This document shows, in pieces, positions 20,003-61,925 of a DNA stretch of 64,000 nt (the stretch's first letter is position 1; every line of letters starts with the position of its first letter). This DNA comes from an uncultured Gammaproteobacteria bacterium (GTDB lineage Bacteria > Patescibacteriota > Microgenomatia > Levybacterales > UBA12049), in assembly GCA_964635045.1 (NCBI GenBank), contig CAZWMJ010000004.1:2205-66204 (forward strand), given 5' to 3'. A program made the translations under genes and the position numbers. Below the pieces are notes generated by a model. That model was not told where the DNA came from and made no database searches. It saw only the letters and a list, made by a program, of their open reading frames with translations.

Positions 20003-20083
20003 TTATCAAAATAGGTCAAAATCGCGTCTGACGCGATCAAAACCAAGTCCGACTTGGTCAAAACCAAGCTGAGCGTGGTAAAA
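20003..20083. repeat. array of three short stem-loops separated by TCAAAA (copy 1 of an intergenic repeat)
   Basis: The three stem-loops are CGCG-TCTGA-CGCG, CCAAG-TCCGA-CTTGG and CCAAG-CTGAG-CGTGG, each followed by (G/A)TCAAAA or TAAAA. About 45 nt are identical to 21070..21130. Confidence 0.75.
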
Positions 20084-20102: not shown

Positions 20103-20768
20103 CTAAAACGGTGGTTTTGCCTCAAGAAGAAGTTTATGAGCTAGAGATACGAAGTAATGCTCAAGCGCTCTTTTTTGTAACGGTACAAGCATTTCTGGAA
20201 AGTTTTGCAGCGTTTTTACTTCAAGAAATAGGTGCGCGAGGTAAAAGTTTGAAAGTCCCAAGTCTTTTTTCTTCGCGTCTTGCAAGAGCCTGTTAAAGGT
20301 AAGCTGATTTTGTTTTTTAAGGATAAAATAGAGATCAATGAAGTCCTTGGCCTCGGTTCTGCCGAATATGGCGGTAATTTTATTGCTTCCAATATTCTCA
20401 ACGGAATCAACGCGAATCTTGCCGAAGGTTTTTATGCGGCCAAAGTGCACAGGCTGTTCTCTTACAAGGTCTATTTTTAGTTCTTCACTTTTGTTAATAA
20501 GGAAAAATTTGTGGTATCCCTCTGTTGCCAGACGGTGATCAAGTTTTGTTTTTGTCTTCTCTGCAACGGATGTTAGCATTTGTTTTACAGGAGCAATCTC
20601 GATATCCTCAAAAGTAAAGAGGTCAAGGTCAACGCTTTTTCTGTGGTGAAAATAAAACCCGGCAAGGGCGGTACCACCAGTAAGAAAGTACGTTTGGCCA
20701 GCCGGCCATTCGAAGAAGTTTTGGAGAACCTCCTCTTGAAGCCTAGTGAGTGGATTTTTCTTTTTCAT
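20103..20768 (-). CDS. AbiEii/AbiGii-type nucleotidyltransferase toxin (type IV TA family)
   Basis: 221 aa. The motif FLTGGTALAGFYFHHRKSVDLDLFT matches the AbiEii (DUF1814) nucleotidyltransferase core. It is paralogous to 40219..40851. Confidence 0.7.
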   Translation of the reverse strand: MKKKNPLTRLQEEVLQNFFEWPAGQTYFLTGGTALAGFYFHHRKSVDLDLFTFEDIEIAPVKQMLTSVAEKTKTKLDHRLATEGYHKFFLINKSEELKIDLVREQPVHFGRIKTFGKIRVDSVENIGSNKITAIFGRTEAKDFIDLYFILKKQNQLTFNRLLQDAKKKDLGLSNFYLAHLFLEVKTLQNFPEMLVPLQKRALEHYFVSLAHKLLLEAKPPF

Positions 20769-21069: not shown

Positions 21070-21130
21070 TTAGAGAAAATATCAAAATAGGTCAAAATCG
21101 CGTCTGACGCGGCCAAAACCAAGCTGAGCT
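21070..21130. repeat. stem-loop array, copy 2 (two units)
   Basis: The sequence ATCAAAATAGGTCAAAATCGCGTCTGACGCG..CAAAACCAAGCTGAGCTTGGTCAAAA repeats the 20003..20083 element, so the TA pair is flanked on both sides. Confidence 0.75.
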
Positions 21131-21163
21131 TGGTCAAAATTAGGCAAAAGAAACAATTATAAT

Positions 21164-24058
21164 CTAAGGAGCAGAGGAGACAATTTCCACCCCTTGTTTT
21201 TTCGCTTCTTCCAGGGCTCTTCCATCTGTGAGGTAGACAGCATTTTGACTAGTAAAATCAACTTTATCAAGATCGGTTATTCTAGGGGCAAGATGCGAAG
21301 CGCTAGATCTGTCAATCGCGGGATAGAGGGTTGCTGTCGGAAAATATAATACTTTGTCTGGTTTTCCTTCCCCCACCATTGATAATCTATCTCTTTTTAG
21401 CAAGAGAGCTCCTGATACTTGATTAATCATTGCCTCCCTATCAACATAGGTGAAACTACCATCGTCACGATATACCCCTTGACCTTTAATATTCCATCCC
21501 CAGGCCATAATCATGCCAAGCTTTCCTCCGTTCTGTCTTGAGAGATCGTTGACAATATCAATATTTTGTAGCGCTTCATTTACCCCTCCCTTATTTGTAG
21601 ACTGACCCGCCAAACCCCAGCTATTGGCAGAGGTCCAAAGCATAAGGGGTTTTTCATAGGTTTTTGATAACCAGCCCAAGGTTCGCACCATGCCGGACAG
21701 GAGATTAATATCCTGTTTGGTTAATGGCCAATTAGAAGGATTGTCATGCAAGTGGGTATCGGCAGAAAAAATGAATGTATCTGGTGTTTCTCTAAAAATC
21801 CGTTCAACATCGGGGAAAAATGGGGTATCACGTTGTATGTGAAAAGTCATCATGGTTCGCAAGCTGGGATTTAACTCCTTCCATAAATTTGCACTCCAGG
21901 CTGCATAGTCGGCAATAACTCCCGATGTAAACTCTCCGCGTTGATATGGGGAGGCTTCTGCAAACTTTACACCGTACCGTTGTTCAAATGCGGCCATTGC
22001 ATGGGGGGAGAAGTCAGAACCCATTGGTTCGTCAGCCAAATTGATAGCAATAACATGAGGATATTTTTTAATAATAGTTTCGTTAACCCAACGATAGTAA
22101 TCGCCAATGTCTTTCTTGTACTCTAGTGAATATGGGCTGGTTGTTTCTCCGCTTTTCCATTGGTTCATCAGATTGCCATTTACGTCTCTCCGTAATTCTC
22201 CAGGATGTTTGTCATTCCATTCCTGACCCATTTGTATTTGATAGCCAATTGGTAAAACAACATTTAAACCAATTTCAGCGCTAGCATCGAGCGCATTAAC
22301 AATTGCTTGATGTATCTTTTCAGCATTCTCTTTATTGGGAGTATTTTTTTGCAGAGCAAACCAGACGGCAGGAGCAAGACCTGGTTCACTGCCATTTGGA
22401 TCTGTATTACCCGGATTATTATGTCCAATGTAAATAACATTTGCTCCTAAATCTTTCATTCGACGCATGTCTTTAGCCATCTCTTCCTTTGAGGTTCCGG
22501 GTATTGCGGTGTAGGCCCAGCCCACTTTATTTTCGAAGGGAATCAATCTCTCCCTGCCTTCTGCTTTCATTTCTTCCATGACATACTCCAGAAGCGGTCC
22601 AATTTGGGCTGTCATCCAGGAAGCTTGTCCGCTTTTTTCGTCAAGATTGATATAGCCCCATTTTTCGGGCTCACCCTCATTCTTTAATTCAAATCCTTTG
22701 TCTCTTAACTGAAAAACAATTACCGCCTGGGCGCCATATTTTCTGGCCTCCTTTATAATTTGAACGGTTCTTTGGCCCCTATCTTTGGGATCATTTGACC
22801 CGCCTTCGGAAATAATAAAAGGAACGCTGTCGCCAAATTCTTTTTTAAGAGCCTCAACCTGTTTTTTTATCCGAGAGGGATCATGAAAGACGTGGAGGGA
22901 AAAAACAAACTGACTAAGATCAACACCCTGATTTCTTAATTGTTTAGCAAGTTCTGCTGTCCTCCCATTTATCTTCTCATCTTCCCAATAGTCGAGGAGA
23001 CTTCCTATGATTAAATTTACATTTACTCCTTTTCTTTTTAAGATGTCGGACGTCTGTGAAATAAACTTGGCAAAACTTTCCAGAGTTCTATCTTCCTGTA
23101 TTTCTTCCTCCCAGAATTTAGGTAAATCCGGCTCGTTACCCAGTTCTAAAGCAAAATTTTTGTAATTTCCCATTAAAGATAAAATCCGATCAAGTCTTTT
23201 AGCGGCTTCCTCATCCGGCAATAATCTGGTGGGATTGTAGGCGATGATAATTTTTAAGTTTAGCTGCTTGGCTTTATTGATGGTTTTTAAGGCCTCGGAT
23301 TTTCGTTGGAAATCTTTTTCATTGGCTTGATCAAGGGAAAGTCTGACAATACCCGCTCCTATTTGGGGGATTTTTTCAACAAGCTGCGGGTATTCGGAGT
23401 CAAAACCAAGCCAGGAAAGAGCTTGTTTACCCTCAATCCAGAGGACCTCTTTTAGCTGGATATCGCCGAATGGAACTTCGAAATCTCCGTTTTCTGTTCT
23501 GACTAAAAATCTGCCATTGCCGGCCGGTCCTAAAACCTCTAAATCTTTATTGGTAATTTCAACTTCTGCCGGCGTATTGGCGCCGGGAAGAAAAAATGTC
23601 GGTTTTTCCACGGCAATAGTGGCCTGTGACAGCCGTGTTGGGTTTGTTTCCTTTTCTTCATGGATAGTTTGGGCGCTCAAGATAGCAGGGGTTAACAGCC
23701 CCGCCGCTACTTTTGGCAATACATCTTGAGCTGCCGTGCCTGCCATTAAGGCCGCCATGCCCGCCGCCGCCAACCGCTTAGCGTTCCTTTGTTTCCAGGA
23801 AAGCATTTTGGTTGGTTTTTTTCCGATGACCCTGACAAGTTCATCTGCCGGAACATACTTTGGAGTTTTTTGAGCGGTTTGTGATTCTCTAAAAGCCGCC
23901 AATGTCGTAGTTAGCGTGTCAGGATTAACACGGGAAAAATCAGGAGCGGTGGGAAATTCTCTGAAAGCTGCTAATGTTGTATTTAGCGTGTTGGGGTTAA
24001 CACGAGAAAAATCGGGGGTAGGAGGCGAACCAGAAATTATTTCTGTCATTATTATCAA
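21164..24058 (-). CDS. bitopic protein with two TIM-barrel glycoside-hydrolase-like domains (clan GH-A signatures)
   Basis: 964 aa. The N-terminus holds a tandem 20-aa motif (PDFSRVNPxTLxTTLAAFRE, two copies) followed by one TM helix. Domain 1 has ALELGNEPD and IISEGGS. Domain 2 has AINLADEPMG. NEP/DEP acid-base motifs are typical of GH5/GH42-like enzymes. Confidence 0.6.
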   Translation of the reverse strand: MIIMTEIISGSPPTPDFSRVNPNTLNTTLAAFREFPTAPDFSRVNPDTLTTTLAAFRESQTAQKTPKYVPADELVRVIGKKPTKMLSWKQRNAKRLAAAGMAALMAGTAAQDVLPKVAAGLLTPAILSAQTIHEEKETNPTRLSQATIAVEKPTFFLPGANTPAEVEITNKDLEVLGPAGNGRFLVRTENGDFEVPFGDIQLKEVLWIEGKQALSWLGFDSEYPQLVEKIPQIGAGIVRLSLDQANEKDFQRKSEALKTINKAKQLNLKIIIAYNPTRLLPDEEAAKRLDRILSLMGNYKNFALELGNEPDLPKFWEEEIQEDRTLESFAKFISQTSDILKRKGVNVNLIIGSLLDYWEDEKINGRTAELAKQLRNQGVDLSQFVFSLHVFHDPSRIKKQVEALKKEFGDSVPFIISEGGSNDPKDRGQRTVQIIKEARKYGAQAVIVFQLRDKGFELKNEGEPEKWGYINLDEKSGQASWMTAQIGPLLEYVMEEMKAEGRERLIPFENKVGWAYTAIPGTSKEEMAKDMRRMKDLGANVIYIGHNNPGNTDPNGSEPGLAPAVWFALQKNTPNKENAEKIHQAIVNALDASAEIGLNVVLPIGYQIQMGQEWNDKHPGELRRDVNGNLMNQWKSGETTSPYSLEYKKDIGDYYRWVNETIIKKYPHVIAINLADEPMGSDFSPHAMAAFEQRYGVKFAEASPYQRGEFTSGVIADYAAWSANLWKELNPSLRTMMTFHIQRDTPFFPDVERIFRETPDTFIFSADTHLHDNPSNWPLTKQDINLLSGMVRTLGWLSKTYEKPLMLWTSANSWGLAGQSTNKGGVNEALQNIDIVNDLSRQNGGKLGMIMAWGWNIKGQGVYRDDGSFTYVDREAMINQVSGALLLKRDRLSMVGEGKPDKVLYFPTATLYPAIDRSSASHLAPRITDLDKVDFTSQNAVYLTDGRALEEAKKQGVEIVSSAP

Positions 24059-24145: not shown

Positions 24146-26527
24146 TCAGCGACCTTCTTTTCTTGATAAATTTCGATCCAGTTTGGGTGAACCCAGGGCA
24201 ATATAGGGACCTTTCACACTGTCGGAATTTTCAGCTGGCTGCCTTTTATCCGGATCTACTTTGGCTCCCCGGTCAATTGCCTCGTAACCTTCTTCTTTCA
24301 AAGCTTGAACAATTTCCTGCTGCAGCAGTCTAGCTAAAGCTTCGCTGGAAACCCGATGCTTTGCATCTGCCATGGCATACTCATTGGGAAAGTACGTTTC
24401 AGCTCCCACTGCATTGGGATTATCCAGGCCGTTAAAATGGAGCGACACGTAAGCCACTTTTCGATCTTCTCTCTCATCAGGAATTCGCAGGGCTTCGGCC
24501 ATGGCCAAGAGCAGAGCTTTTCTTTTTTGCAGTCTTTCAATGTTGGAGACCAAACCGTCTCCGTCAATATCTTCATCATTGGGGTTTTCGGGGCGTAACA
24601 CGACAATATCATATCTGCCTTTGCTTTCCCTTAATAATTCCTGTGCTGTTAGTCGGGCTAGCTCCCACGTCATATCTTTTTCCGCCAGCTTTTCCCCTTC
24701 GACACTGGTAGTCCCTGCTCCTATGTCTGCGGCCCCATGCCCGGGATCCAGGCCGATAACTGCGTGAGAGTCTCCGTAATGCTCTGCTATGGCTTTGGCA
24801 TGAGCCCTGGCCAGACCGTATAAAATCTTATTTCTTCTGTCCTGGGGAAATTGGGCCAGCTCTTTTAAGAATAAGCTTTCGGTTAAGACCGCATCGTGGC
24901 TTCCTCTCAACATACCGATCCATGGAGCCACTTCCCCGTAACTTAACTCCCGGGGGTAATAGATCTTTGATTCGGGCAATTTGGGTATTTCCTCTTCTTC
25001 TCTGTCTTGGGTCATTTTGAGAAGCTGCCTTCGTACCTCCTCCCTGATCGGTTTCCAATAATTTTCTCTGGGATTTGATGATCCGGGATTACCGCCTCGG
25101 ATCTTGGTAATGGCTACTCCTTCTATGCCGGCGCCGACCACAAAATTGCGATTGTTAATAACTAACCCGGCCATTTCCGGAGTGCCCAGCTCCCAACCGC
25201 CCGAAAACTGTTGTAAAATACCCTCTCCTGTCATTTTGACAATTTCTTCCAAAGCAGGCGAGAGCATACCCTCCAGATCAAAATCCGGATTGAGTCTGCC
25301 TTGTTTGATTTTCGCAAGCACTATATCTCGCAAGGCTAGCGCCAGACGACCTTTATTAAAAGGGTTTTTCTGAGATTCTTCTACCAACCTTTTGAAAAAT
25401 GCCACTAAAACTTCCTGCTGGCGGCCGGCCCTGACATAATCACTGCCTCCCTGGTGCGTACGGCTGCGCGAATATTTTAAGGCAGTGGCTCCGTTTAGTT
25501 TCTGTCTGCCTTTGGCCAGATAAAAAGGGTCAATGCCGGCCCCTTCTTTGGTGGGATATTTTTTATCATCAATTGTGCTTTCAACATCAACTTCCACATA
25601 CCCCACTGTTTTATCAATCATATCCTCCAAAACATCGAAACGCGATACGCTGGCGAGATCTATGGACAAACCGGTGGCATTTTCCAAGACTTCTTTAACC
25701 AGATTAATGCCACCCAGTTGATGAGCGAAATTAATGCGCGACCAGGCCTCGTTTTTACCCTCCCGCCACACTTCCGGGGACTGCAAATCGCGTGGAAGAG
25801 AAAGAAAAAAAACAGTGTTGGTGGGCAAATGATAAGAAAAAACCATCATGGAATCTGTCATGGTGCCTTCCTTGCCAATCCCCAACAACACTCCATTGAT
25901 TCTACTTTCATTAAGTTCCTTATCAATTCTTTTTAAATAATCCGGGTCTTCTTTGACTCTTTTATCTCTAATTTGTCTTACTTCCGATATGATCCTGGGC
26001 AAAATCATTTCCCGCAAAATTTCCCTCTTGGTTGGCTCAACTTTGGCCGCTTCCAGGAGCACTCCCCCTACAGGCGCAGCTTCTGCCTCAAGATGTTTGA
26101 TGATTTGAGGTATTTCCGGAGTGGGTAAAACTTCCCCCGCCTCCGCGGCCGGCACTCCCATCATCATGGGCTCGGCAGTTCTAACAGGAGCAGGAGCAGG
26201 CGCCAAAAGCGGCCCCATCAATCTCTGGAAGACTTGATCTGCTGCTAATCCGGCTCCCACACCGGCCGCTATTGCCAGAAGCTTTCTTCTGGAAATACCT
26301 TGTTTTCTGACCTGCGGAGACAGGGGAAGTTCTTCTTTGGTTGGTTTTCGAGCGGCTGGCTTTTCTCGAACAGCGACTAAGGTTGTCCTTAGCGTGTCAG
26401 GATTAACACGGGAAAAATCAGGATCGGCTGGGGGTTCTCTGAAAGCTGCTAATGTTGTAGTTAGCGTGTCAGGATTAACACGGGAAAAATCAGGAGTAGA
26501 AGGTGGAGCGGAAATTGTTTCTGCCAT
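24146..26527 (-). CDS. bitopic LytR-CpsA-Psr (LCP) domain + N-acetylmuramoyl-L-alanine amidase (amidase_3) fusion protein
   Basis: 793 aa with the same tandem N-terminal motif and a TM helix. LCP blocks are MTDSMMVFSY...LSLPRDL, GGINLVKEVLENATGLSID and LNGATALKYSRSR...RAGRQQEV. Amidase_3 blocks are GLDPGHGAADIGA, VSLHFNG and GAETYF. Confidence 0.75.
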   Translation of the reverse strand: MAETISAPPSTPDFSRVNPDTLTTTLAAFREPPADPDFSRVNPDTLRTTLVAVREKPAARKPTKEELPLSPQVRKQGISRRKLLAIAAGVGAGLAADQVFQRLMGPLLAPAPAPVRTAEPMMMGVPAAEAGEVLPTPEIPQIIKHLEAEAAPVGGVLLEAAKVEPTKREILREMILPRIISEVRQIRDKRVKEDPDYLKRIDKELNESRINGVLLGIGKEGTMTDSMMVFSYHLPTNTVFFLSLPRDLQSPEVWREGKNEAWSRINFAHQLGGINLVKEVLENATGLSIDLASVSRFDVLEDMIDKTVGYVEVDVESTIDDKKYPTKEGAGIDPFYLAKGRQKLNGATALKYSRSRTHQGGSDYVRAGRQQEVLVAFFKRLVEESQKNPFNKGRLALALRDIVLAKIKQGRLNPDFDLEGMLSPALEEIVKMTGEGILQQFSGGWELGTPEMAGLVINNRNFVVGAGIEGVAITKIRGGNPGSSNPRENYWKPIREEVRRQLLKMTQDREEEEIPKLPESKIYYPRELSYGEVAPWIGMLRGSHDAVLTESLFLKELAQFPQDRRNKILYGLARAHAKAIAEHYGDSHAVIGLDPGHGAADIGAGTTSVEGEKLAEKDMTWELARLTAQELLRESKGRYDIVVLRPENPNDEDIDGDGLVSNIERLQKRKALLLAMAEALRIPDEREDRKVAYVSLHFNGLDNPNAVGAETYFPNEYAMADAKHRVSSEALARLLQQEIVQALKEEGYEAIDRGAKVDPDKRQPAENSDSVKGPYIALGSPKLDRNLSRKEGR

Positions 26528-26529
26528 TA

Positions 26530-29500
26530 TTATTGCGCGGTAGATTTAGCTCTTTCAAGAAGTTCTACGCTTTTTATAATAGCTAGGAGCTCGCCCTGTC
26601 TGCTCCCAATATATTCGTCTAATCGGTGGGGAAATCCTGCCTGCGATCCACTAGCAAACATCACATATATTTGTCTGGCTCGAACTTTGGGTTCTTGAAT
26701 ACCTGCTTCTGCAAAGAATGTTTCCAAAGCTTCAACCTTAGTCCTATCACCGCTAAACATTATACGACGATTGGGGTCTGATACTTCTTCGGCTTCCCTA
26801 GCTTGTTGAATAGTTCTCAATGAATTACTTGATAGTTCCAAGATGCTTCTTAAGGTTCCTTTGTCAACGGTTGCTAACGACGGGTCACCGTAATAGGCTG
26901 TTTTTAGTTCTTCTCCCAGACGGTTTATTTCAACATTTGTTAATCCGACCTCATGTCTAACAGAAGAAAGCAGACTGGCCGGAATTTCTGCAGTGGGCGT
27001 AGCGCGCGGGGCTGGTGTTTCAGTTGTCGCCGGCGCCGGTGCAGCCGGAGCGGTTGGAGCTGATGGTTCTGGGAGTGGGGGAGCTTGAGTTTTCTCATTT
27101 AATATTCCATTAACAATTTCTACTTCGGCCGCTTCTGCCAGTTTTCCAAAATAGTCTGCTCTTTTTTCTGCAACATTATTGACAGCCCTCAAATGTGTCA
27201 CCTCGGCTTGGTTTCTTGCCAAAAGAGCATCCAAAAACAGCGTGTCTGATACTGATTTTCCTTCTTTAAGTTGAGTAATAAGTTTAGCAAAAGTTGTGTT
27301 TTTTTCTTTCAATGTCTTCCGCAATTTATCTATCTGTCCTCTGTCTCTAGAATCTATTCCAGCTTGACTATCAAAGAGCCCAGTAAACGCATCGAATGCT
27401 TGGTCGCGTTTATTGTAATCTCTGTCGTTTTTCTTGCTCTGCAGATAGGTGTCATAGGCAGTGCAGGCTTTTTGAAACGCATTCTGTAAAGGGGTATTGT
27501 TAAAAACTCTTTGAGCTAACAACTGTTGGTGATACACTAAGTCCCAAGTGGCGAAATAGTCAGCTGTATTATAGGGCAGACGAGAGGCTATAACACTCTT
27601 ATTCTCTTGCTCTTGTTGAATAGTCGTCCTTCTTGCTTCTTCGGGATGATTTAGTTGTTCAGCTAATGTACTTTCTAGAACGTCAGCAGTATCTGCGGCC
27701 CCTCTCATATAGGTTTGTTTGAGTTGAGCGATAAGCGGTTCTGCCGCCCTAAGTTCTTCTTCAAATGGAGTCGGTGGTTTTTCCCGGCGGCCAAAACTCG
27801 GTTTTGGAACTTGAGCTCTTAGGCTTTCCCAACGCTCTCCCGCCGTTTTTCTTGCTTGAGCCAGTCTTTCCCCCATACCTGCAAATGGCCGTCTTGGTGA
27901 TGGTGGAGAAGATGGTGTAGCCGGAGGCGCTTCGGCTGCTCCCGGTGCAACAGGAACTGCGGCTTCCAGCGCTTCGGTTGGTATTGCTACTCCCACTCTT
28001 TGAAGAGGTTCTAAATAGATGATTCTACTTATTTCCAATCCCGCTCTTTGTGCGGCGCCAAGTAATAATTCCAATTCTTTCTGTGCCCAACTATTAGTTG
28101 CCCTTTGATAAATAATCATTTTGCGATTTTTTTCAGCAAAATCCCGGGATAAATCTAAAATTTGCGCCTCGGGGATGCTTTCTTCGGATATTCTTTTAAG
28201 GAGAGATTGAAAGTTAACAACCCTAAGGTTAGCGTCCGAGGAAAGTCTATTAGTTTCATCTTTGTCTATACCGAGAACATCATCGAGCGTTGTGAAGAAG
28301 GCGGCGTTGGCTTGATTATATCTAGCCTCATTAGTAACGTCAGCGATTGAACCCGTTCTATACGCCCTGTCGGCATCTTTTAGTTCTTGAAACACTGTTT
28401 GCAATTTTTCTGACTCCGGAAATATTTGAGCCGGGGTGATTCCTTCAAGACCAATAATCGCACCAAGAATAGTGCCCGCTTTAAACCGGAAACCCAGAAG
28501 CATCCCTCTTTCTTCTTCCTGAAGTATAGTTTCTATCGTCTCATCTTCTCCAAGGCCTAAAGTCTTCCCTATCTGCATTTGTAATTCATCGGTTCTTTTC
28601 TCTGTCTCTAATGCTGTTTCCATAGGTTTTTCTCTGTATGCGTCACGGAGTTGGCCAAATAATTCTTGAGCGCGCGTTGTTTGCTCGGCAGTTAATGCGG
28701 CCGCTTCAGCCGTCACAGGAACTGCTTCAGCCGCTCCAGCAGCCGGTTCAGCCGGTGGGGGAGTTGCTGGCGCAACTGCCGCTTCAGTTGCTGGGGGTGG
28801 TTCTGCTGCTGCCACTGTACTTTCAACAGTTTCAGCTGCTGGTTCAGTTACTGTTGATACTGGAGCAGTTGCAGCCGGGGTTGCCGGTTGTGGGGGCCCA
28901 GACGAGGGTCTCCTCATGGCCTCTTCCATGTCCCGATTTAACCTTTCAAGGTCTCCTCCTGCGGTTGTTTGTATTTGTTCTGTCCTCTCTCGTAATCTGT
29001 CAAGCGCTCCGGCCGTATCTGCGGGAGGTACTACCCCGGCCGCGGGCGCGGCTGGAGGTTCTCCACTAGTCGCGGGCGGAATTGCTGGCCTAGCAGATGG
29101 GAGAGGTGGAAGGGTTAATTCTGCCTGTTCTATCCCCTCCGGCTGTCTGGGAGTTGATTCTTCTTCGGTGGGAATGCCTGCTTCTGCTCTTGTCCCCGGA
29201 TAATCTTTCCAGTAGTTAAGTTCTTCAGCTGTTTTTGGTTCTACTACAGGTGGTTGACCAACTGCCTCAGGCTCAATTGTAAATGGAATTGTCGTTGGTA
29301 TAACCCCCGTTGCAGCTTTATAAACATCCTCATCTGGTAGTTTTATCTCTCCCGCCGGTTTGCCGCTTTCCCCCCAGAGATCAATTTCCGGTTGAGGTTT
29401 TCGAGTAATCCCCCCCAGTCTATCTGCCGCCTGTTCGGCAGTCATTGGCCCGGTGGGTGGTTGCGGTAATTCCTCGGCAGAGGGTATTGGTTGGCCTTGT

Positions 29501-32049
29501 TCGTTTACTAATCCGCTGGGGTGTTCAGCTTGTTGAAGACGCAAAGCCGCCTCAAGTCTTTGCTCTATTTCCGCCGGCGATATTTGTGGAGCGGGACGAT
29601 GGGTTTTATCCGGTTCTCTTAAGAAATAATCGTCTAGCCATTTAGTGATAAGCTCTTCTCCAGCAGACCTTGGTACTAGGGGCTCTTCCTTGCCGAACGC
29701 TCTTTTTATTATGGTATTGTAATCTTTTTCTGAAAGAATACTCTGGAGTTTTTTCAGCAGAGGATTATCAGGAGTCACTTTAGCCGACACAAGAGAATTA
29801 GCGATGAGGTCATGGCTTAACAATGTTCGATCGTTTACATACTGTTCGGGATTGTCTAGGCTTCTTATATAATCTGCTTCGTGGTCTCTGACAAAGTCTT
29901 TGATATCAACTTTTTCACCGGTTTTTTCTTGCCATTGTGCGAAGGCCCGTAAATTATTCTCCAAATAATCTCGTGCCTGTTGCATCTCGGCTTCTCTTCT
30001 AAGTTTGGCATTTTCCATCGCGTGTGCCGAAACCACAGCATCTAGATTTTCTTTGGGGATTTCTGTCGGTCGCGGTTCATGAACTATTCTTTCTCTCAGC
30101 CCCGGCCCGCCGGGAGGAATTATCAGTTCTTCCGGAGGAGTGGTCGGTGGAGTAATCCCCCCAAGTCTATCTGCCGCCTGTTCGGCAGTCATTGGCCCGG
30201 TGGGTTCTGCTGCTGGCTCTCCAACTATGGTGGAGGGGATTTCCTGACCTTGTTCGGTTACTAATCCGCTTGGATGTTCAGCTTTCTGTTTTTCCAAAGC
30301 GTCTTTTAATCGTTGATCTATTTCTTCCGGCGGTATTCCGGAAAAAGGCGGGTGTACTTTTAGTGGAGGAGCCGGAGAAAGAGTCTCATCTAATAGTTTT
30401 TTCCCTTCCGCCGGTTTACCACTCTCCCCCCAGAGATCAATGGTGGGTTCTTGTCCGGTTGGTGGCGTCGGCGCAGGCGTAGTTGTCTTAACCGGCGTAA
30501 TAGTTTCTGCCTCTTGTTCTATTCCTTCCATATCCCTGCGAATAAATGGTTCTTTAGTAGTGGCAGCAGGCTCTCTTGGACCAAAATCTTTCCAATAACC
30601 AATCTGTGGAGGAGCAGTTCCTGCCTCCTCTTTTATTCCCTCCGGCTGTCTGGGAGTTGGTTTTTCTCCGGCAGAAGTATCAGCGTCCGCTCTCCACCCC
30701 GGAGAATCTTTCCAATAACCAATCTCTGGTTTTTGTCCGGGCGGTGGTGTTACTACTGTTGGTTCCGTTGGCGGCTTGACTACTGTTGGTGTTCTTCCTC
30801 CCCCCGTAGGTTCCTGTGTCCCTCCCTCAATGAATCTTTTTCTGGTAACCTGGGGGTTTCTCTCCAGTTTGATGGGGGTTTTCACCCCTCTCTCAAACCG
30901 CTCTTCTCCTTTGAGGGCCAGAAGAAACAGGTGGAGGCTTAAGGCATCTATCTCTCCTTTCATCTGTTCTTGAAGTTTTTGTTTGCCAATATCCTGGTTA
31001 AATCCCTGGTAGTTATCAATCATAGTTTCAAGACCGGGTTTGCTGAAATCTATCTCTTTTAAGATGTCTGCCATATCTAAAGCTACCGGGGTGAGAGTTG
31101 ACAGATCTGCTGTTGATGCTCCAGCTGGTGCCGTATCCACATTTCTTTTATGCTGAAGAGCTTCTTTAATGTTGCGGTAGAATCTGCCTCTGACTTCCGC
31201 ATAGGTTAGTTTGGTGGTAAATCTATCTTCCGCTGATTGAGGCTTGGCCAGTCTTTCTCTAAGAGACTGGATCATATTTCTATAGGAGGGAGGTTTACCT
31301 TCCTGTTTGAGAGTATTGGCAATATCCGTAATGACAATACCTACTCCCGGATATCGTTTCTCCGGAAAGGCAGTCATCAGGGTGGGGTCTTCCACATCTG
31401 CCAGCCTATCTTCAATTAGTCTAAAGGCCAGGAAATCCTGTCTGGCTTCCCTTAACATCTCTCTCGGTTTGCCTTCATCATCCAGATAGTAGGCCACATA
31501 AGGTCCTTCTGCCTGATCTCTCACTCCCAGTTCTCCCACCTGGGTAAGTACGGTATTAGGCCTGTTCTCCGCAAATTGAGTACGCAGATCCTCAATCATT
31601 CTTTGTTGTTCTTCCTGCCGCATGGTAGTAAAGTGAGCTTCAATTGTGCGGGCCAGTTCTCTCAGATCAGGATGATTTTCCCCCATCAGAATCTGTTTCA
31701 CCCAATCATCACCGGAATATGCTTCTGAATCCCTAACTCTCTTATCTATCTCTCCCAGCTTTCTCTTTCGATACTGATCATCATTCTCCCCCGTATTCTT
31801 GGGAAGATGAGAGGCAATCTTATCATCGGCAAACTTATCTCCCAGATAGGCATCTGCCCTTTTAAATTCTGCAGACTTTTTATATGCCTCAAGGGGAATA
31901 CCTAAATCTCTTCTCTCATCATGAATTTTTAAAGAAGCCGGTCTTCCCTGTTGGGCAGGAACTGTGTCTGGTTGGGGAGAGGTTTGGCTTCCCTCTCCTG
32001 AGGGGGCGGGGGGAGGGGAAGTTGGTTGTTCTGGTGTCGGATCTGCCAT
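26530..32049 (-). CDS. giant protein 1 (1839 aa): shared N-module + repeat-rich Pro/Ala/Glu body + helical C-region
   Basis: One uninterrupted ORF. The N-terminal region of about 420 aa is identical to giant protein 2. There is no signal peptide and no TM helix. It contains internal repeated linear motifs (see findings). Its stop is 2 nt from the start of 24146..26527. Confidence 0.8.
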   Translation of the reverse strand: MADPTPEQPTSPPPAPSGEGSQTSPQPDTVPAQQGRPASLKIHDERRDLGIPLEAYKKSAEFKRADAYLGDKFADDKIASHLPKNTGENDDQYRKRKLGEIDKRVRDSEAYSGDDWVKQILMGENHPDLRELARTIEAHFTTMRQEEQQRMIEDLRTQFAENRPNTVLTQVGELGVRDQAEGPYVAYYLDDEGKPREMLREARQDFLAFRLIEDRLADVEDPTLMTAFPEKRYPGVGIVITDIANTLKQEGKPPSYRNMIQSLRERLAKPQSAEDRFTTKLTYAEVRGRFYRNIKEALQHKRNVDTAPAGASTADLSTLTPVALDMADILKEIDFSKPGLETMIDNYQGFNQDIGKQKLQEQMKGEIDALSLHLFLLALKGEERFERGVKTPIKLERNPQVTRKRFIEGGTQEPTGGGRTPTVVKPPTEPTVVTPPPGQKPEIGYWKDSPGWRADADTSAGEKPTPRQPEGIKEEAGTAPPQIGYWKDFGPREPAATTKEPFIRRDMEGIEQEAETITPVKTTTPAPTPPTGQEPTIDLWGESGKPAEGKKLLDETLSPAPPLKVHPPFSGIPPEEIDQRLKDALEKQKAEHPSGLVTEQGQEIPSTIVGEPAAEPTGPMTAEQAADRLGGITPPTTPPEELIIPPGGPGLRERIVHEPRPTEIPKENLDAVVSAHAMENAKLRREAEMQQARDYLENNLRAFAQWQEKTGEKVDIKDFVRDHEADYIRSLDNPEQYVNDRTLLSHDLIANSLVSAKVTPDNPLLKKLQSILSEKDYNTIIKRAFGKEEPLVPRSAGEELITKWLDDYFLREPDKTHRPAPQISPAEIEQRLEAALRLQQAEHPSGLVNEQGQPIPSAEELPQPPTGPMTAEQAADRLGGITRKPQPEIDLWGESGKPAGEIKLPDEDVYKAATGVIPTTIPFTIEPEAVGQPPVVEPKTAEELNYWKDYPGTRAEAGIPTEEESTPRQPEGIEQAELTLPPLPSARPAIPPATSGEPPAAPAAGVVPPADTAGALDRLRERTEQIQTTAGGDLERLNRDMEEAMRRPSSGPPQPATPAATAPVSTVTEPAAETVESTVAAAEPPPATEAAVAPATPPPAEPAAGAAEAVPVTAEAAALTAEQTTRAQELFGQLRDAYREKPMETALETEKRTDELQMQIGKTLGLGEDETIETILQEEERGMLLGFRFKAGTILGAIIGLEGITPAQIFPESEKLQTVFQELKDADRAYRTGSIADVTNEARYNQANAAFFTTLDDVLGIDKDETNRLSSDANLRVVNFQSLLKRISEESIPEAQILDLSRDFAEKNRKMIIYQRATNSWAQKELELLLGAAQRAGLEISRIIYLEPLQRVGVAIPTEALEAAVPVAPGAAEAPPATPSSPPSPRRPFAGMGERLAQARKTAGERWESLRAQVPKPSFGRREKPPTPFEEELRAAEPLIAQLKQTYMRGAADTADVLESTLAEQLNHPEEARRTTIQQEQENKSVIASRLPYNTADYFATWDLVYHQQLLAQRVFNNTPLQNAFQKACTAYDTYLQSKKNDRDYNKRDQAFDAFTGLFDSQAGIDSRDRGQIDKLRKTLKEKNTTFAKLITQLKEGKSVSDTLFLDALLARNQAEVTHLRAVNNVAEKRADYFGKLAEAAEVEIVNGILNEKTQAPPLPEPSAPTAPAAPAPATTETPAPRATPTAEIPASLLSSVRHEVGLTNVEINRLGEELKTAYYGDPSLATVDKGTLRSILELSSNSLRTIQQAREAEEVSDPNRRIMFSGDRTKVEALETFFAEAGIQEPKVRARQIYVMFASGSQAGFPHRLDEYIGSRQGELLAIIKSVELLERAKSTAQ
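30786..32040. repeat. 1255-bp direct repeat, copy 1 (5' coding module of giant gene 1)
   Basis: The offset to copy 2 is exactly 7667 nt. Protein sequences and even off-frame shadow ORFs are identical (31237..31419 = 38904..39086; 31307..31489 = 38974..39156), which implies DNA identity wherever it was checked. Confidence 0.9.
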
Positions 32050-32073
32050 AGCAATAATTATGGTTACTAATTT

Positions 32074-32102
32074 ATTGTGAAGGAAGAAAAACCAAAAGTC
32101 AA
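32074..32102 (-). promoter_or_regulatory. putative promoter of giant gene 1 (minus strand TTGACT, 17 nt spacer, CACAAT)
   Basis: Read on the minus strand. The same hexamer pair and spacing occur upstream of giant gene 2. Confidence 0.35.
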
Positions 32103-32119
32103 ATAGCGTGTTGTTCTCA

Positions 32120-33118
32120 TCACGTCTCGCGAATTACATCATACCCTTTCACGTTCCCTACCAGAGCAAATGCGATAATATGTTTTGCTATTTTTGCCGC
32201 TTTTATCTTCTTGGCCGTCTCGTTAAAAGAAGCGCCTGATCCTACCACGTCATCAATAAGTAAGATATTTTTGTAATAAGGCCCGGCGATACTTTTTAAA
32301 TAAATTGAATCCCGGGCATTAATTATTCTTTCTTCAAGACTGGCTAATGTTTTTTGTGGAATGGGAATATCTCCGGGAATAACTTTTACCAGAGCAATTT
32401 TGGGTGTTGACAGATCAAGCTGCCTGGCAAACTCATCCATAAACTGTAATGGTCTGGGCACTGTGGGAGGAATATAGGCAATTGCAGAAATTGAATAGGC
32501 CTTGATAACCTTTTCTATTACCGGTTTAGCTATTGCCGCTGTTTGATCAATAAGCGTTCTTGTTCCTGTCTGTTTGGCATACATAACCAGTTTTGCCAGC
32601 TTCGTTCTCCCAAATACTCGGTAGCTGTAGATATCCTGGAACAACAAATGATCAATATATGATTTGGTAAAGGCATTTTTAATCTTTTCCCCCGCGTCAA
32701 TCCATCCCCCTTTGGCGAAATGCTTTTTTTGTTCCTTCCAAACAGCGGCATATTCTTCCGCCGCTTCTATATAAGACCTTCTCTTCCCGTATTGCCCTAC
32801 CCAATAATTAAATCCTTCTATTCCATATAGCAGTCTTCCGTTGGGAGTAATTGAGAGAAAATTTTCCGAGATGATACGTTGGGTATGTTCCAATAATTTT
32901 TCAGTATCAATGGAGCGAAATTTTTCTTTCGCGGGAAAGGTGTAAAAAACAATTGGTGGTTTGCCTTCCCTTTTAATAAGCCCATCATCAAGCAATCTTT
33001 TTAATTGCTTATGAACAGCTACATTACTAATACCCAGCAAGCGCACCAAATCATGCGCTCTTGCTTGTCCATGATAGCCAATATAGTTGAGAATTTTATC
33101 TCTTGTGTCTGTTAACAT
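32120..33118 (-). CDS. winged-helix HTH + type I phosphoribosyltransferase-domain protein (ComF/PurR-like architecture)
   Basis: 332 aa. The N-terminal HTH is ARAHDLVRLLGISNVAVHKQLKRLLDDGLIKREG. The C-terminal PRT motif is NILLIDDVVGSGASFNETAKKIK. Confidence 0.7.
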   Translation of the reverse strand: MLTDTRDKILNYIGYHGQARAHDLVRLLGISNVAVHKQLKRLLDDGLIKREGKPPIVFYTFPAKEKFRSIDTEKLLEHTQRIISENFLSITPNGRLLYGIEGFNYWVGQYGKRRSYIEAAEEYAAVWKEQKKHFAKGGWIDAGEKIKNAFTKSYIDHLLFQDIYSYRVFGRTKLAKLVMYAKQTGTRTLIDQTAAIAKPVIEKVIKAYSISAIAYIPPTVPRPLQFMDEFARQLDLSTPKIALVKVIPGDIPIPQKTLASLEERIINARDSIYLKSIAGPYYKNILLIDDVVGSGASFNETAKKIKAAKIAKHIIAFALVGNVKGYDVIRET

Positions 33119-33200
33119 AGTTTATGGTTAGTAGTTTACTATAAACTATTAATCATGTCAAGTGAGGTTAGTGGTTGGGAAAAAAACCAAAAGTCAAATA

Positions 33201-36200
33201 CTAAGCGGTTTTTAGGTACTCCTGAATTACTGGGATTTTACTAAGATAATTCGTAAACATATCCACATATTGGCTTGACCTGTCGGCCTCGTTTCCATAG
33301 CCACCTGTTTGATCGACATCGGCTGTTTTATATTCATAAGCGGGCGTTGTTAAATCACCGGCTTTAATCCATGTTTTTCTTAGGCCAACTGTCTGAATCT
33401 CACTGTCATCCTCAACTCCTCCTATCCAGGCCCGTCCTTTTCCGTCACGGCAAAACATATATTGCAGTTTTCCATCTTTTGAAGGAAACACCTCTATGGT
33501 TACATCTCCATAAAGACTTGTTTTCTGTTTCCAACTGGTTAGTTTTTTATTAAAGTCAGGCGACATAGAGGGATTTGTAAACTGAAGTTGTTCTGGTTTG
33601 TTTTTACTATCTTCAGTCGGAGGATAAAAATCACCCTCTAATTTTTTCGGTTCTGCTTCTACTGTCAGCACTAATGTGCCGGGAGAATTTCTATCTCTGG
33701 CTGTACCGGCAAAAATCAGATTTGGATTACTAACATTAAGTATTGGAGCGCTTTCTTTAGAGAACTCTGCCAGCGCTTGTTGAAGCATTATTGGTAAAGT
33801 AACGCTTTCCTCACCATACCCTTTGTCATACCAATCGATATCCCCCTTGTTTTTACCGGGCGTGTAATTAGGTAAATATCTCCAAACACCCTGTGAGTTG
33901 CTGCGGTAGAATGTTCTAGCAACAATTTGTCCCTCTTTTTCTACATAACCAACTACGGCAATTCTTCCATCTGCTAAATTATAGGGGGTAGAGGATAGGA
34001 AAACAGTCGTATTGCCAAGTTTTATTTTGTGTTTAGGAGCTAAACCTTCTTGTTGTAAAATTTGAGCAGTCAGCATGTCGCCGTGGAAGGAATGACCGTG
34101 AATTGCTACCTTACCCATAATCTCCTGACTTTCCGCATCGCTAACTTGTTCTATGGGAATCCGTCCGGTCGCCAGTCCCGCTTCCAGGGCGGTAAGTTCG
34201 GGGAAGACCGAGTGGGCGGCCTCTTTGGTTTGATTAAAGTACTGTTCCAGCTTGGCCGGATCTCCCAAACCATAAACTTTACCGTTTGCAATAAACTTTT
34301 CCCTTAATTCAGGCGTGAGAGTTTCCGGCAGAAGAACTGTTTTTAGAGTTTTCCCAACCTCGGTTTTTTCCTCAGGCGTAAGCTGATCATACCAAACTTT
34401 TACTCTACGCAGTCTGTCGGTAAAACCTTTAACGGTATCTGCATATATTGAACCGGCCATATCTCCCTGTTTTTCATAAATGGCAAGATCAAGTTCGCGA
34501 TCAAGTTTCATTAACTGGGGAATTTCTGGCCTGTTTTCAACCTTTTGATAGAGAGGATAGGGACGTGGCCGCGGCACACCGGTGAGTTCTCCTTCAGCTG
34601 GCGGGACAGTGATAAGTTGATTAAATCCGACTGCTTCAGGAGGGAGAATTTTGGCTGGCGGTCGATGGATGAATCCGCCCACAGCCAGATTTCCCCAAAT
34701 AGTGCTTAATGCTTCAGGAGAAAAAATCTCTCCGGGGATATTTTCGATGGCATCACCATCTCTGGCAAAAGGAGTCGGAGCTTTGATGACCACAAAAGCC
34801 GTCCCGTCTTTTAATTCTTCAGGGTGGAACTTGGTGGCATCCTCGGCATACAAAGTGACGGTTCTTTCCTTTCCCGCCCAGTCAAACTTAATGACTCTTT
34901 TACCCCCCTTGCCAAGTACGCCCGTGTCAGTTGTTGATTTTATATTGCCGCCAATGTCTTTAATTTCGTTTTCAACACTTTCGGTTGTAGGTTTACCATT
35001 TTTATCTACATAACCGGCATAGTCCACAAAAACAAAATTAGCACCATTGGTAAAGGCTAGAGGATAGGTGATATCAAAAAAAGCTCCTGGATAATATATT
35101 GGAAGTCCGCGTTTAATAACTTCTGAATTAGCGGCAATTTGGCGAATTTGCGACAGATTATCCCATATCTCTTCTGTTCCGCGGCTTTTTTTTAATTTTT
35201 CCCAATCCGGATGGGCAAAAGCGATCTGCGATTCCAGTTCTTCAGTCTTCTTTTTTTCTTCTTCCTTCTTTTTTTCTGTAGCTTTTTCTGTTTCGGCGGG
35301 TGTTTTCCCCTTTCCTTGTTCAATTGCCGGTTTACCCGCGCGCTCCGGGGCCTCCGGAGGACGGCGGCGCCAGGGAATGGGCAGGCCCCAGTCAACTCTG
35401 GTAAAGGTTAGTTCTGTAGGCGGAATGTATTCGGTGGCGGTGGGGGGAGTGAAATGAAAGAGAAACGGATTTTTGAGCGGATCTGGTTGATCAATACCCC
35501 ATGCTTCCGTATCCATCAACTGAAGCATGTTTTTAATAGGAGTATTGGGAGTATTACTTAGACCGAGATCAACATTGCCGTAATGATTAAAATCCACGTC
35601 AAATGTACCATCCGGTCTCATAAATCCATGAAGCATGGTGCCGTCGGGAGCGGTAATTGACATTTTTCCAATCTCGGTAAGTCCGGTGGCAGGGTCAATT
35701 CTGCCTGCTTCCTGAGCCCACACATCGTATGGTTTGCCCTCGGGGTTTAGCCAATTAGACTGGGTGATGTCATGGGTGTTAACCAGGAAACTTCCTCTGA
35801 AATCGCCCCCGCCCAGCACCTCATCCGGAGTTTGTCCCACCCCGCCCCGGGTGATATCCTGCATGTGGTTTAAGAAATTGTGGACATCTGTTAGTTGATT
35901 CCGCCAGTTGGCCAGGGCGGTTTGGATGTCTGAAGGTAAATCTTTGGGTTCGCCGGCAATAATCAGATTAGTCTGTCCATCAGCTTGCTGATGAAGCCAC
36001 ATGGGAGGAGCGGGCAGAGGCACTTTATTGCCGTTGGGGTCAGTTTGGATAATCGTGAGGACCCGATCGCCGCCGCTTGCTACCCCTACCTCTAGCTCCT
36101 GACCCGGTCCAATAGAAATGTTTTGGGGATTTGGATCAGCGGAGACATTTTTCAAATCAACACCAAACAGTCTTCTGACAGGAGTTCTGGCCACCCAGGC

Positions 36201-39200
36201 TCCGATATCGGCCAGCCGATCGCCGATACCCAAGGGATTATATTTGGTGGCCACTTCCAGCGCTAAATTCATCGCTTCCCGGGTAGCAAAAGCCCCGGCT
36301 CCTCCCAAAACTAACGTTGTGACTCCGGCTTTGGTCGCCCTAAGTATTCGCTGATTTCGCGCTCTCTTGATGGTGTTTTTGACTGCCTCCCTTCGATTGG
36401 CTATCAGCCGATCTCCCAGGGCTGTCTGAAGATTTTGGGAGATATTATCGGCGCCCGTTTCCAGATTGGCCGCCAAAGTATCGGTTAACAGATTAACTCC
36501 TGCTTCCACCAATTGTTGGCTGGTTAAGTTTTGGGTGGTTACTCCTAATCCAGACAACTGCTGGCGCATGGTATCAAGAGCTGGCTGGTTGGCGTTAAGA
36601 TAATCAACCAGTTGCTTCTGCGCTCCCGCGCTGGAGCTTTCCATGTCTGTTTGTAAACGCTGATAACCCTGGGTATTGCCATTATCTACTTTGAAAAGAT
36701 CAATGCCCCTCTCGCCCATCAGGCGAAATCTGGCGTTCACATCTGAGATCAGGGCCATCACCCGCATTGAGTCTTGCGGCGCTGTTGTTTCAAACTGTTG
36801 AGTTATCTCAGCCATGCCGCGTTTGCTAAAGGCCACCCGGGCCAATTCATTTCTTCGTCTGGCATCGGGAGCAAAGGTATATCCCAAGGCCTCCTCCACA
36901 TTGTGGTGCTGTATTTCCACTCCCGATCTTTCCCACTCCTGGGCTCCTCGCATCAGGGCAAATGCTCCAATACCTCCCATCATGCCTCCTGCACCTGCTA
37001 CCAAACCTCCGCCAATAAAGCTGCCGGCGGTTTTTCCTCCCCATTCTCCCAGCTTTGTACCCAGGAAGACACCACCGGCCCAGCCAATGGGTTGAGCTTT
37101 TATAAGTCCCTGCAAAAGAAGAGCCCGGTTCCCCGCCGTGCTAAGATACATATCGGGTACCACGGCGCCCGTTCGGCCATCTCTTATCTGCTGATACAAT
37201 TGCAATACCCGTTCGTGGGTGGGACCGCGTTGGGCGGCGAGGCGCTCCAGCAGGGTATGGCCCAGTTCGCCTCTGGTTTCCGCCAGCAGTGTTCCCACGT
37301 TTACTTTTAATACCACATCTTTAAGATAATTATCGATGTCAGCATTGGTTTGGAGAACCTCCTTCATCTGGGACAGTTGCGGTTCGTACACCTCTTGAAA
37401 CACTTTTACCAGATCGCTGCCGTAGCTTAAGGACAAGCGAAAATTCTGTGCAAAATCCGGATTTTTGCTTTGGGCATCGTACCAATCTAAAAACTTCTTG
37501 CTGAAGAAAAATTCCTGCATTTCTCGCTGGACGCCAAGATAGGTGTTGTTGTTGAGGGTGCCGGCGATGCCCTCTCTCAGCAGGGGAGTGAGGACGCGAT
37601 CTATGTAAAAGTCTCGCATGGGGCCTTCCAGCACCAGTTGTTGAGCCAGACGGCTTTCTCCGGCATCGGTATGGACTTCAAACTGTTGCCTGACGCTGTC
37701 TGTTAATCTCTTGGCCACTGCCTGTGAAGCGGCGTAGTCGCCTGTCACAATGGTTTTAAGCTGATTATAGAGATCTGTCATGCCGTTTTGATTTAGTAAA
37801 TCTTGTGATTGCTGTGAGAGTTGAGGTTGGTTTATCTCCTCCTCCTCCATAACCTGCCGCAGCTGCCCGACCAGTTGCACTCGTCTTTGCTCCCGTTCTG
37901 TTTCGGAAGAGGTGATATCGTGAAAGCGGTCTCGCGCCCAGCCGGTGGCTCTTCTTAAACCTCTTCCTCTTTCTCCCCTGACTCGGGCGTCAATCACGTC
38001 GTCAAGCTGATGAATAAACTCAACGGGTAGGGCAGTGGTATTTATGCCTGTTTGGGCCATCAGCTTCATGGCATTTTTGCGGTCCTTGTCATACAGGCCT
38101 GCGGCTGCGAATGTACTTTGCCATAAACGCCTGATGATGCGGTTGGGTCTAAAACCTTTTGCTTCCCATTCTTTTCTTCGTTCTTCGCCAAGTTGGACGG
38201 CCACCAGGTCTGCCAAAAAGGCCATAACTTCCTGTTGATTTTCTTTCCCTTTTTCCCCTGCCTCTTTAATTTTTTGCTTTTCTGAAACAACGGAAGATAC
38301 GAGTTCCGTAGGAAGGGTGGGCGGAGGGGGTTTCTCTCCATCTTTTGTTGGCCCGGGCGGTAAGTCTCCCGGCGGTCCCTCTTCTTTAATCGGCGGTTCT
38401 ACCGGTCCCGTCGGTGGTTCTGTGGTATCCGGCCCCGGCCCCTTTTTCTCCGGTGGTGTTCTTCCTCCCCCCGTAGGTTCCTGTGTCCCTCCCTCAATGA
38501 ATCTTTTTCTGGTAACCTGGGGGTTTCTCTCCAGTTTGATGGGGGTTTTCACCCCTCTCTCAAACCGCTCTTCTCCTTTGAGGGCCAGAAGAAACAGGTG
38601 GAGGCTTAAGGCATCTATCTCTCCTTTCATCTGTTCTTGAAGTTTTTGTTTGCCAATATCCTGGTTAAATCCCTGGTAGTTATCAATCATAGTTTCAAGA
38701 CCGGGTTTGCTGAAATCTATCTCTTTTAAGATGTCTGCCATATCTAAAGCTACCGGGGTGAGAGTTGACAGATCTGCTGTTGATGCTCCAGCTGGTGCCG
38801 TATCCACATTTCTTTTATGCTGAAGAGCTTCTTTAATGTTGCGGTAGAATCTGCCTCTGACTTCCGCATAGGTTAGTTTGGTGGTAAATCTATCTTCCGC
38901 TGATTGAGGCTTGGCCAGTCTTTCTCTAAGAGACTGGATCATATTTCTATAGGAGGGAGGTTTACCTTCCTGTTTGAGAGTATTGGCAATATCCGTAATG
39001 ACAATACCTACTCCCGGATATCGTTTCTCCGGAAAGGCAGTCATCAGGGTGGGGTCTTCCACATCTGCCAGCCTATCTTCAATTAGTCTAAAGGCCAGGA
39101 AATCCTGTCTGGCTTCCCTTAACATCTCTCTCGGTTTGCCTTCATCATCCAGATAGTAGGCCACATAAGGTCCTTCTGCCTGATCTCTCACTCCCAGTTC

Positions 39201-44757: not shown

Positions 44758-44804
44758 ACGGCAAACTATATTATATCCCATTTTTTGCTATACTCAAAAC
44801 AGTT

Positions 44805-61920: not shown

Positions 61921-61925
61921 AGTTG

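Follow-up and report, generated by a model that had tools for sequence, protein, structure and literature searches.

Conserved peptide modules in a giant orphan protein encoded beside a type IV secretion-like locus

What kind of protein carries several short peptide motifs, each repeated, in an order that looks mirrored around a central segment? The question arises from a 64,000-nucleotide (nt) stretch of contig CAZWMJ010000004.1 (hereafter the window), in which a single long intact open reading frame (ORF) at 26530-32049 on the reverse strand encodes the giant protein P0001, of 1839 amino acids (aa). The best explanation is that P0001 is a non-enzymatic, lineage-specific modular orphan protein. 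As to its function we are more tentative: at somewhat less than an even chance, we infer that it is a multivalent docking scaffold or adaptor, or else a secretion substrate recruited by the type IV machinery encoded in the same window.

Exact-motif mapping finds every motif named in the original prediction within this one ORF, and the modules together cover approximately 29110-30735, inside the 28900-30800 originally given. There are three module types, Y (about 40 aa, three copies), W (two copies) and ET (67 aa, two copies), arranged in the order Y1-Y2-W1-[ET1]-core-[ET2]-W2-Y3, so that each class has at least one copy in either arm. The motif YWKD starts at aa 445, 485 and 946, PRQPEGI at 466 and 967, IDLWGESGKPA at 537 and 889, EI[DE]QRL at 576 and 827, AEHPSGLV at 590 and 841, and TGPMTAEQAADRLGGIT at 617 and 866. 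Two units on the N-terminal side had been described as ending in TPRQPEGI, which is true of Y1 (and of Y3 in the other arm); Y2 ends in FIRRDMEGIEQEA, with RRDMEGIEQE in place of the expected residues, and represents a distinct subtype. The E part of the ET unit is a predicted amphipathic helix. A helix-turn-helix assignment for the T motif was considered and rejected, the HTH_20 match (E-value 0.09, 13 bits) being far under threshold.

Over its whole length, P0001 consists of helical domains alternating with linkers of 17-27% proline, and the module-bearing repeats are short, dispersed and located in segments of 17-18% proline. Beyond the module region, a pair of helical domains that are paralogues of each other (H1 and H2, 26% identical across 237 aa, E-value 5e-7) represents a second, older internal duplication; a conserved PRRPFAG...PPTPFEE linker joins them. 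No Pfam, NCBIfam or PHROGs domain, enzymatic or other, was found in the whole protein or in any of its segments, and a PDB sequence search with P0001 and with the second giant protein of the window, P0002, returned no match, in agreement with the earlier view that the protein is not an enzyme.

Are the repeats genuine, or do they reflect the composition of proline-rich arms? A blastp comparison of the N arm (aa 430-640) with the C arm (aa 820-990) recovers the ET unit as one continuous match (67% identity over 67 aa, E-value 1.6e-24) and the Y unit as another (48% over 56 aa, E-value 4.6e-14), while Y1 and Y2 match each other at 50% identity (E-value 1e-7). In a Smith-Waterman alignment the arms score 206 against each other, compared with 61 +/- 10 and at most 115 for 500 shuffled versions having the same proline-rich composition as the arm (z ~14). 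Because the score lies far above the shuffles, the similarity goes beyond composition, and the doubt that the original prediction had itself raised on this point falls away. At the DNA level there are direct repeats of 110 nt (74% identity), 105 nt (74%), 64 nt (83%) and 56 nt (98%), dispersed with start-to-start spacings of 747-1503 nt. The example first offered of high DNA conservation is 3 nt out of register, the true pair being 29403-29460 and 30150-30207, with 55 of 58 positions identical. T1 and T2 have a perfect stretch of 42 nt in common, and 16 of the 17 T codons are identical between ET1 and ET2, compared with nine synonymous changes among the 25 conserved residues of E, which suggests recent, patchy conversion.

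The mirrored order fares less well. It is present at the level of three modules, reading Y-W-[ET] on one side of the core and [ET]-W-Y on the other, but not for the four separate motifs, as E precedes T on both sides. Three module types give mirrored orders in 1/6 of cases (p ~0.17), so the mirror is not in itself informative or evidence of design. The syntenic relative described below has other module arrangements, split over different genes. Nor do the repeats form a solenoid-type head-to-tail array: the copies are dispersed, of three kinds and located in segments predicted to be coil. A single segmental duplication would yield a direct order, and several events are therefore needed. Most probably the mirror arose incidentally in the course of module shuffling, and nothing here supports a functional two-armed clamp.

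Which of the modules are conserved outside this protein? A full HMMER search with P0001 aa 1-1000 against 1.84 billion representative proteins gave ten hits. The N-terminal family A domain (about 400 aa) is also present on the giants P0004, P0005 and P0006, is C-terminal in P0003 and stands behind a Ser/Thr kinase domain in P0010. The motif region is matched only in P0007 (565 aa), where IGYWKDLGPREPVATFEEPFIRRDLEGIEEEA is followed directly by LDLWGETGKPAG, corresponding to Y (subtype b) and then W, and afterwards by two H-type domains. The Y-W pair of P0001 and P0007 is 54% identical as a whole and, in this search, 73% over its best stretch, with the flanking domains at 24-33%. Species-representative genome scans and JGI metagenome scans, queried with aa 1-1000 and with an H2 alignment, revealed no relative, and neither the E alignment nor the hydrolase introduced below found a match among viral contigs. 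A word-index search with the whole of P0001 found only P0001 itself and P0002, proline-rich words having probably swamped it.

P0007 is encoded in locus L001 (sample SRR22388089), which shares synteny with the window: the two window genes downstream of P0001 match the LytR-type gene of L001 at 50% and 32% identity. Upstream of P0007, and truncated where the contig ends, lies a rearranged P0001 orthologue. This orthologue is 33% identical to P0001 over the PRRPFAG linker and H2 (E-value 7e-34), has the E-module tail, an IPFTIE motif and a DRLRE helix, and is without T, W2 and Y3. Its two core-like domains, which score z=9.3 and 5.1 when compared with the core of P0001, occupy another position; the helical core of about 190 aa previously called unique is thus unique within P0001, with homologues in its relative. 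Between the window and L001, 27 of the 34 Y residues are conserved, eight of them with synonymous codon changes, as are 9-10 of the 12 W residues, with 5-6 synonymous changes. Because the residues are kept while the codons have diverged and the flanks are only distantly similar, the pattern indicates purifying selection on the Y/W peptide instead of recent DNA transfer, as expected of functional linear motifs. The window and the loci L001-L006 showed no further copy of Y, W or T outside P0001 and P0007.

A third copy of E was found elsewhere in the window. When the Y, W and ET profiles were compared with all six-frame segments of the window and L001-L006, the ET profile matched the ORF at 14395-16209, which encodes an SLT_3 peptidoglycan hydrolase, at aa 301-353 (independent E-value 2.2e-6). 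By blastp, the hydrolase sequence RTRPAYSGISREEIDRRLQQALSQQPTAPSGGLVMPSGQSIPS is 49% identical to P0001 564-606 over 43 aa (E-value 9.5e-6); nothing else in any frame of the window (40,361 aa) is matched significantly by P0001 aa 422-1839. The three E copies have 16 invariant positions at 46-57% identity, with the consensus I-x3-E-I-[DE]-x-R-L-x2-A-L-x2-Q-x6-G-L-V-x3-G-Q-x-I-P-S. In the hydrolase the E module is followed by a lysine-rich stretch, a single hydrophobic segment (approximately aa 398-428) and the lysozyme-like domain, an order from which the positive-inside rule predicts a cytoplasmic E. A resemblance between the P0001 core and the rest of the hydrolase N-terminal part was set aside as not significant (z=2.2).

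Since E also occurs in what is predicted to be the cytoplasmic tail of the hydrolase, a cytoplasmic component of the type IV machinery is the likeliest partner of E in P0001. The modules may serve as docking sites, as linear motifs and, in E, as a short amphipathic helix, and two copies per site could allow a partner to be bound bivalently. P0001 would then be held at the machine as an adaptor or scaffold, or would be a substrate recruited there. The symmetric multivalent scaffold first suggested is partly supported, by the dispersed modules in proline-rich segments, the lack of known domains and the conservation of the Y/W peptide; the symmetry carries no information, and the scaffold role is a conjecture. 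The coordinates of these and the neighbouring features are collected in Table 1.

Table 1. Features of the window and of related loci. Positions are in window coordinates unless a locus is named; residue numbers refer to P0001 except for the third E module, where they refer to the hydrolase.
Feature	Position (nt)	Strand	Description
P0001 gene	26530-32049	-	1839-aa modular protein, single long intact ORF
Family A N-terminal all-alpha domain	30787-32040	-	aa 4-421
Y1 module, subtype a	30610-30735	-	aa 439-480; IGYWKD...TPRQPEGIKEE
Y2 module, subtype b	30496-30615	-	aa 479-518; IGYWKDFGPREP...FIRRDMEGIEQEA; counterpart in P0007 (L001)
W1 module	30394-30453	-	aa 533-552; IDLWGESGKPA
ET1 unit	30148-30336	-	aa 572-634; E EEIDQRLKDALEKQKAEHPSGLV..GQEIPS, then T TGPMTAEQAADRLGGIT
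Helical core	29584-30099	-	aa 651-822; homologous to two domains of the L001 relative
ET2 unit	29401-29583	-	aa 823-883; T part 55/56 nt identical to T1
W2 module	29338-29397	-	aa 885-904
Y3 module, subtype a	29110-29232	-	aa 940-980; NYWKD...TPRQPEGIEQ
H1 and H2, paralogous helical domains	27085-28689	-	aa 1121-1355 (H1) and aa 1431-1655 (H2)
Third E module	15190-15333	-	aa 293-340, in the N-terminal part of the 604-aa SLT_3 peptidoglycan hydrolase
SLT_3 lysozyme-like (VirB1-like) protein	14395-16209	as P0001	24 bits, below the Pfam cutoff of 27
VirB4-like ATPase	16225-18108	as P0001	TraG P-loop, E-value 5.7e-28; AAA_10, DUF87, TraC_F_IV
PrgI/VirB3-like fusion	18750-19964	as P0001	PrgI, E-value 1.6e-8
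T4SS_pilin (VirB2-like) protein	49101-50630	as P0001	E-value 1.2e-7
P0002 giant	33201-39722	-	2173 aa; same N-terminal domain as P0001, unrelated C-terminal region
MarR-type winged helix and PRTase-like gene between the giants	32120-33118	as P0001	
dnaA	11266-12618	opposite P0001	
dnaN	12758-13897	opposite P0001	
Family B	9095-11176, 41134-42696, 42712-44781		~250-aa N-terminal domain (78%, 40% identity), different C-terminal regions
Family B, L003	7884-9953, 17961-20459, 20476-22272		accompanies giant genes
Family B, L005	14406-15911		accompanies giant genes

How well does the locus fit a type IV secretion system? The window has a VirB4-family ATPase, with PrgI/VirB3-like, VirB1-like and VirB2-like genes near it. 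No relaxase family was matched among the window ORFs scanned, several of which are without any Pfam match. The widespread type IV system of Patescibacteria is a monoderm, MPF-FATA-related system that typically adjoins dnaA/dnaN, beside the replication origin, is without a relaxase and, as cited there, is essential for epibiotic growth in the sole strain tested (PMC12102498). Directly downstream of P0001, starting 3 nt past its stop codon, is the gene for a LytR-CpsA-Psr/amidase membrane protein, and a 964-aa membrane protein is encoded in the same array, also on the P0001 strand.

Several other features of the array were recorded in passing. The LytR-CpsA-Psr/amidase and 964-aa proteins each start with two tandem copies of PDFSRVNPDTLxTTLAAFRE (23911-24055 / 26389-26533; 26350-26495), and in their L001 counterparts the repeated N-terminal motif is a different one (..ADPRLARLIRG..), with which P0007 begins too. 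An intergenic element of 60 nt occurs twice, at 20004-20063 and 21080-21139 (92% identity, identical 30-nt core), upstream of the PrgI-like gene and of a small ORF preceding AbiEii, respectively; it contains several TTTTGACC repeats and small hairpins and may be an operator or promoter element. The block containing both giants is flanked by AbiEii-type toxin genes (20103-20768 and 40219-40851, 27% identical), and in the gene between the giants the C-terminal region has weak PRTase-CE and Pribosyltran matches, under cutoff. Stretches of 31-38 nt with 97% identity link 6245-6282 with 6813-6849, in a Wzy_C-type gene, and 6265-6295 with 50590-50620, the latter pair involving the T4SS_pilin gene. 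Six tRNA genes lie at 60403-62968, four for tRNA-Ser (tga, gct, cga, gga) and two for tRNA-Arg (ccg, gcg).

The setting also lends itself to the interpretation, unlikely in our view but deserving weight, that P0001 is an effector delivered by the type IV system into a host cell, where its modules would mimic host binding motifs. Models for such mimicry are the EPIYA and CM repeats of Helicobacter CagA and the repeats of chlamydial Tarp. P0001 is encoded in a secretion array in which no relaxase was detected among the ORFs scanned, and has probably disordered arms with repeated motifs. Lacking a Sec signal, it could be exported only by a dedicated system, and the combination of a common N-terminal domain with variable C-terminal regions and mosaic relatives is typical of diversifying effector repertoires. 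By contrast, an E module in the tail of a membrane-anchored machine component fits a partner in the producing cell better, and the N-terminal domain has relatives joined to a Ser/Thr kinase domain (P0010) and others on putative membrane giants, suggesting a cytoplasmic interaction domain. For these systems, in addition, no translocation signal is known.

The older suggestion of a tether, if taken as extracellular, goes with the idea of a cell-surface tether or adhesin like the proline-rich proteins beside Gram-positive conjugation systems. P0001 is large, has proline-rich linkers and adjoins LytR-CpsA-Psr/amidase and secretion genes, all of which would suit such a role. However, a signal peptide and an LPxTG motif are both absent, no segment convincingly spans the membrane (over 19 residues the hydropathy peaks at 1.53), the N-terminus (MADPTPEQPTSPPP...) contains no hydrophobic segment, and the hydrolase copy of E lies on the predicted cytoplasmic side. 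An extracellular tether is unlikely on these grounds, and the adhesin, which they contradict, we consider very unlikely.

A single-sequence AlphaFold model of aa 421-1000 (mean predicted local distance difference test score, pLDDT, 48, a low-confidence value) assigns helix to E1, E2, T2 and the core alone, while Y, W and most of the arms come out as coil; the disorder expected of the arms is consistent with this, and the low confidence of the model makes it weak evidence. The N-terminal domain, modelled from a seven-sequence alignment, is all-alpha (pLDDT 73) and gave no match in a Foldseek search against PDB folds (best E-value 0.35).

How did such a protein come about? The 1254 nt at 30787-32040 in P0001 and 38454-39707 in P0002 form a direct repeat with 100% identity, and the junction of this cassette falls in a proline-rich linker, 17 aa ahead of Y1. 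Deletions or hybrid genes might arise through the repeat. In an independent assembly, the Logan contig L007 (SRR12113383) equals window 32011-38483 at 100% and ends 30 nt inside both copies; as a k=31 assembly is expected to break at both, the repeat can be taken as real. This bears on the possibility that the gene structure is an artefact of assembly or annotation, which a perfect 1254-nt repeat in a metagenome-derived contig might invite. The internal modules have diverged to 74-83% nucleotide identity, which rules out reads that were collapsed or duplicated, the intact ORF has a 33% identical homologue elsewhere, and the Logan assembly breaks exactly at the repeat boundaries, leaving an artefact hardly credible.

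Related loci record similar events. L001 3413-4937 and L006 2149-3673 align over 1525 nt at 96.5% identity between unrelated flanks, with abrupt breakpoints in mid-gene; in P0011, the protein of L006, the H domain at the C-terminus is retained and the N-terminal half is unrelated, containing neither Y nor W. The genes neighbouring this segment encode a kinase-like protein and a PP2C phosphatase. In another genome, a family B protein has a C-terminal region (L003 18675-19685) that is 40% identical over 340 aa to P0002 aa 1504-1843, and C-terminal regions have therefore been exchanged between different N-terminal carriers. One of the family B members in the window has a weak HopA1-like match. 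Domain reshuffling has been proposed for large orphan proteins of another Patescibacteria lineage, Patescibacterium danicum (PMC11809585). The 1254-nt cassette, the rearrangement in L001, the L001/L006 mosaic and the T codon identity largely show that P0001 was built by module shuffling and gene conversion in linker-coding DNA, not by one segmental duplication.

If shuffling built the protein, the repeats might be nothing else than its debris, that is, neutral junction marks left by frequent recombination in the linker DNA of a hypervariable locus resembling those of antigenic variation, with no binding role. The perfect 1254-nt repeat, the L001/L006 mosaic, the module rearrangement between the window and L001 and the earlier proposal for large Patescibacteria proteins (PMC11809585) all point this way, and the 42-nt perfect stretch of T1 and T2 could support recombination. 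We nevertheless regard this explanation as improbable, since Y and W residues are kept between species despite many codon changes, the invariant positions of E are the same in three copies that are otherwise 46-57% identical, and conservation is much lower between the modules than within them.

Some observations weigh against a docking role all the same. Conservation of Y and W comes from one comparison, with the sole relative L001, and ET was found in no other genome, the search of representative proteins having given only P0007. The hydrolase E could be a shuffled fragment without a common function, and the disorder of the arms is suggested by a model with a mean pLDDT of only 48. The docking partner and the binding are putative, proposed from where the modules occur, and the organism is probably Patescibacteria-like and ultrasmall, as judged by its gene content. 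If the mirrored order were functional after all, it would be under-explained by the account given here.

It is conceivable, with a slight chance of being right, that E is an internal recruitment signal common to the machine and its clients, presented by a clamp and varied by recombination. P0001 and the family A and B cassette proteins would then be the system's long-sought clients or substrates. The Y-W-ET/ET-W-Y order could form a hairpin-like two-armed clamp with like modules side by side, and in-frame recombination at the 42-nt T1/T2 stretch and the 1254-nt cassette could generate variants. Were recruitment motifs of this kind confirmed, they would provide a sequence handle for finding the clients of the system in thousands of uncultivated genomes; were they not, the locus would still record rapid recombination-driven protein remodelling in a reduced genome.

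The P0001 family and its modules appear to be undescribed, although proteins of the same general kinds are known, namely motif-bearing disordered scaffolds and effectors, and the reshuffled orphan giants of Patescibacteria. Among the first, CagA of Helicobacter pylori is a type IV effector with a disordered tail bearing EPIYA and CM motifs, whose number varies by recombination. P0001 resembles it in having repeated short motifs in a region of a large type IV-linked protein that is probably disordered, on a low-confidence model; its repeats are direct and in frame, so recombination could change their copy number too. The differences are considerable. There is no sequence similarity, and Pfam and PDB sequence searches gave no match that would indicate homology. 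The host of P0001 would be a prokaryote, its translocation is hypothetical, and the modules are of three kinds spread around a folded core instead of in tandem.

Polymorphic toxin and effector systems (Rhs, CdiA, LXG) combine a conserved N-terminal domain with swappable C-terminal regions. P0001 and P0002, with an identical 420-aa N-terminal domain and unrelated C-terminal regions, follow the same plan, as does family B. In contrast to those systems, no toxin domain was recognised by Pfam, NCBIfam or PHROGs and no immunity gene was identified, the downstream gene being that of the LytR-CpsA-Psr/amidase protein, and the N-terminal domain of P0001 matches no known trafficking domain in sequence or fold. 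PrgB/PrgC-type adhesins, for their part, have a signal peptide and a C-terminal LPxTG, and P0001 has neither. The large proteins of P. danicum have FhaB-type exoprotein domains and are inferred adhesins (PMC11809585). P0001 is without an FhaB-type domain or export signal; it is like those orphans in its very large size, the lack of a full-length public homologue and reshuffling by homologous recombination.

The closest comparison is with the Patescibacteria type IV locus itself. P0001 is not a recognised component of that system, and keyword look-ups in the survey brought up no description of giant proline-rich proteins, shared N-terminal cassettes or peptide modules in common with the hydrolase (PMC12102498). 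The likeness lies in the setting, with PrgI/VirB3-, VirB4-, VirB1-like and T4SS_pilin genes by dnaA-dnaN, and P0001 on the same strand as the secretion genes. The locus thereby offers candidates bearing on the role of this widespread system, among them an orphan with conserved docking-type modules, a module that recurs in the predicted cytoplasmic tail of a machine component, and two N-terminal cassette families with swappable C-terminal regions. Its value is that it ties a conserved peptide module, in a way open to testing, to the enigmatic Patescibacteria type IV system.

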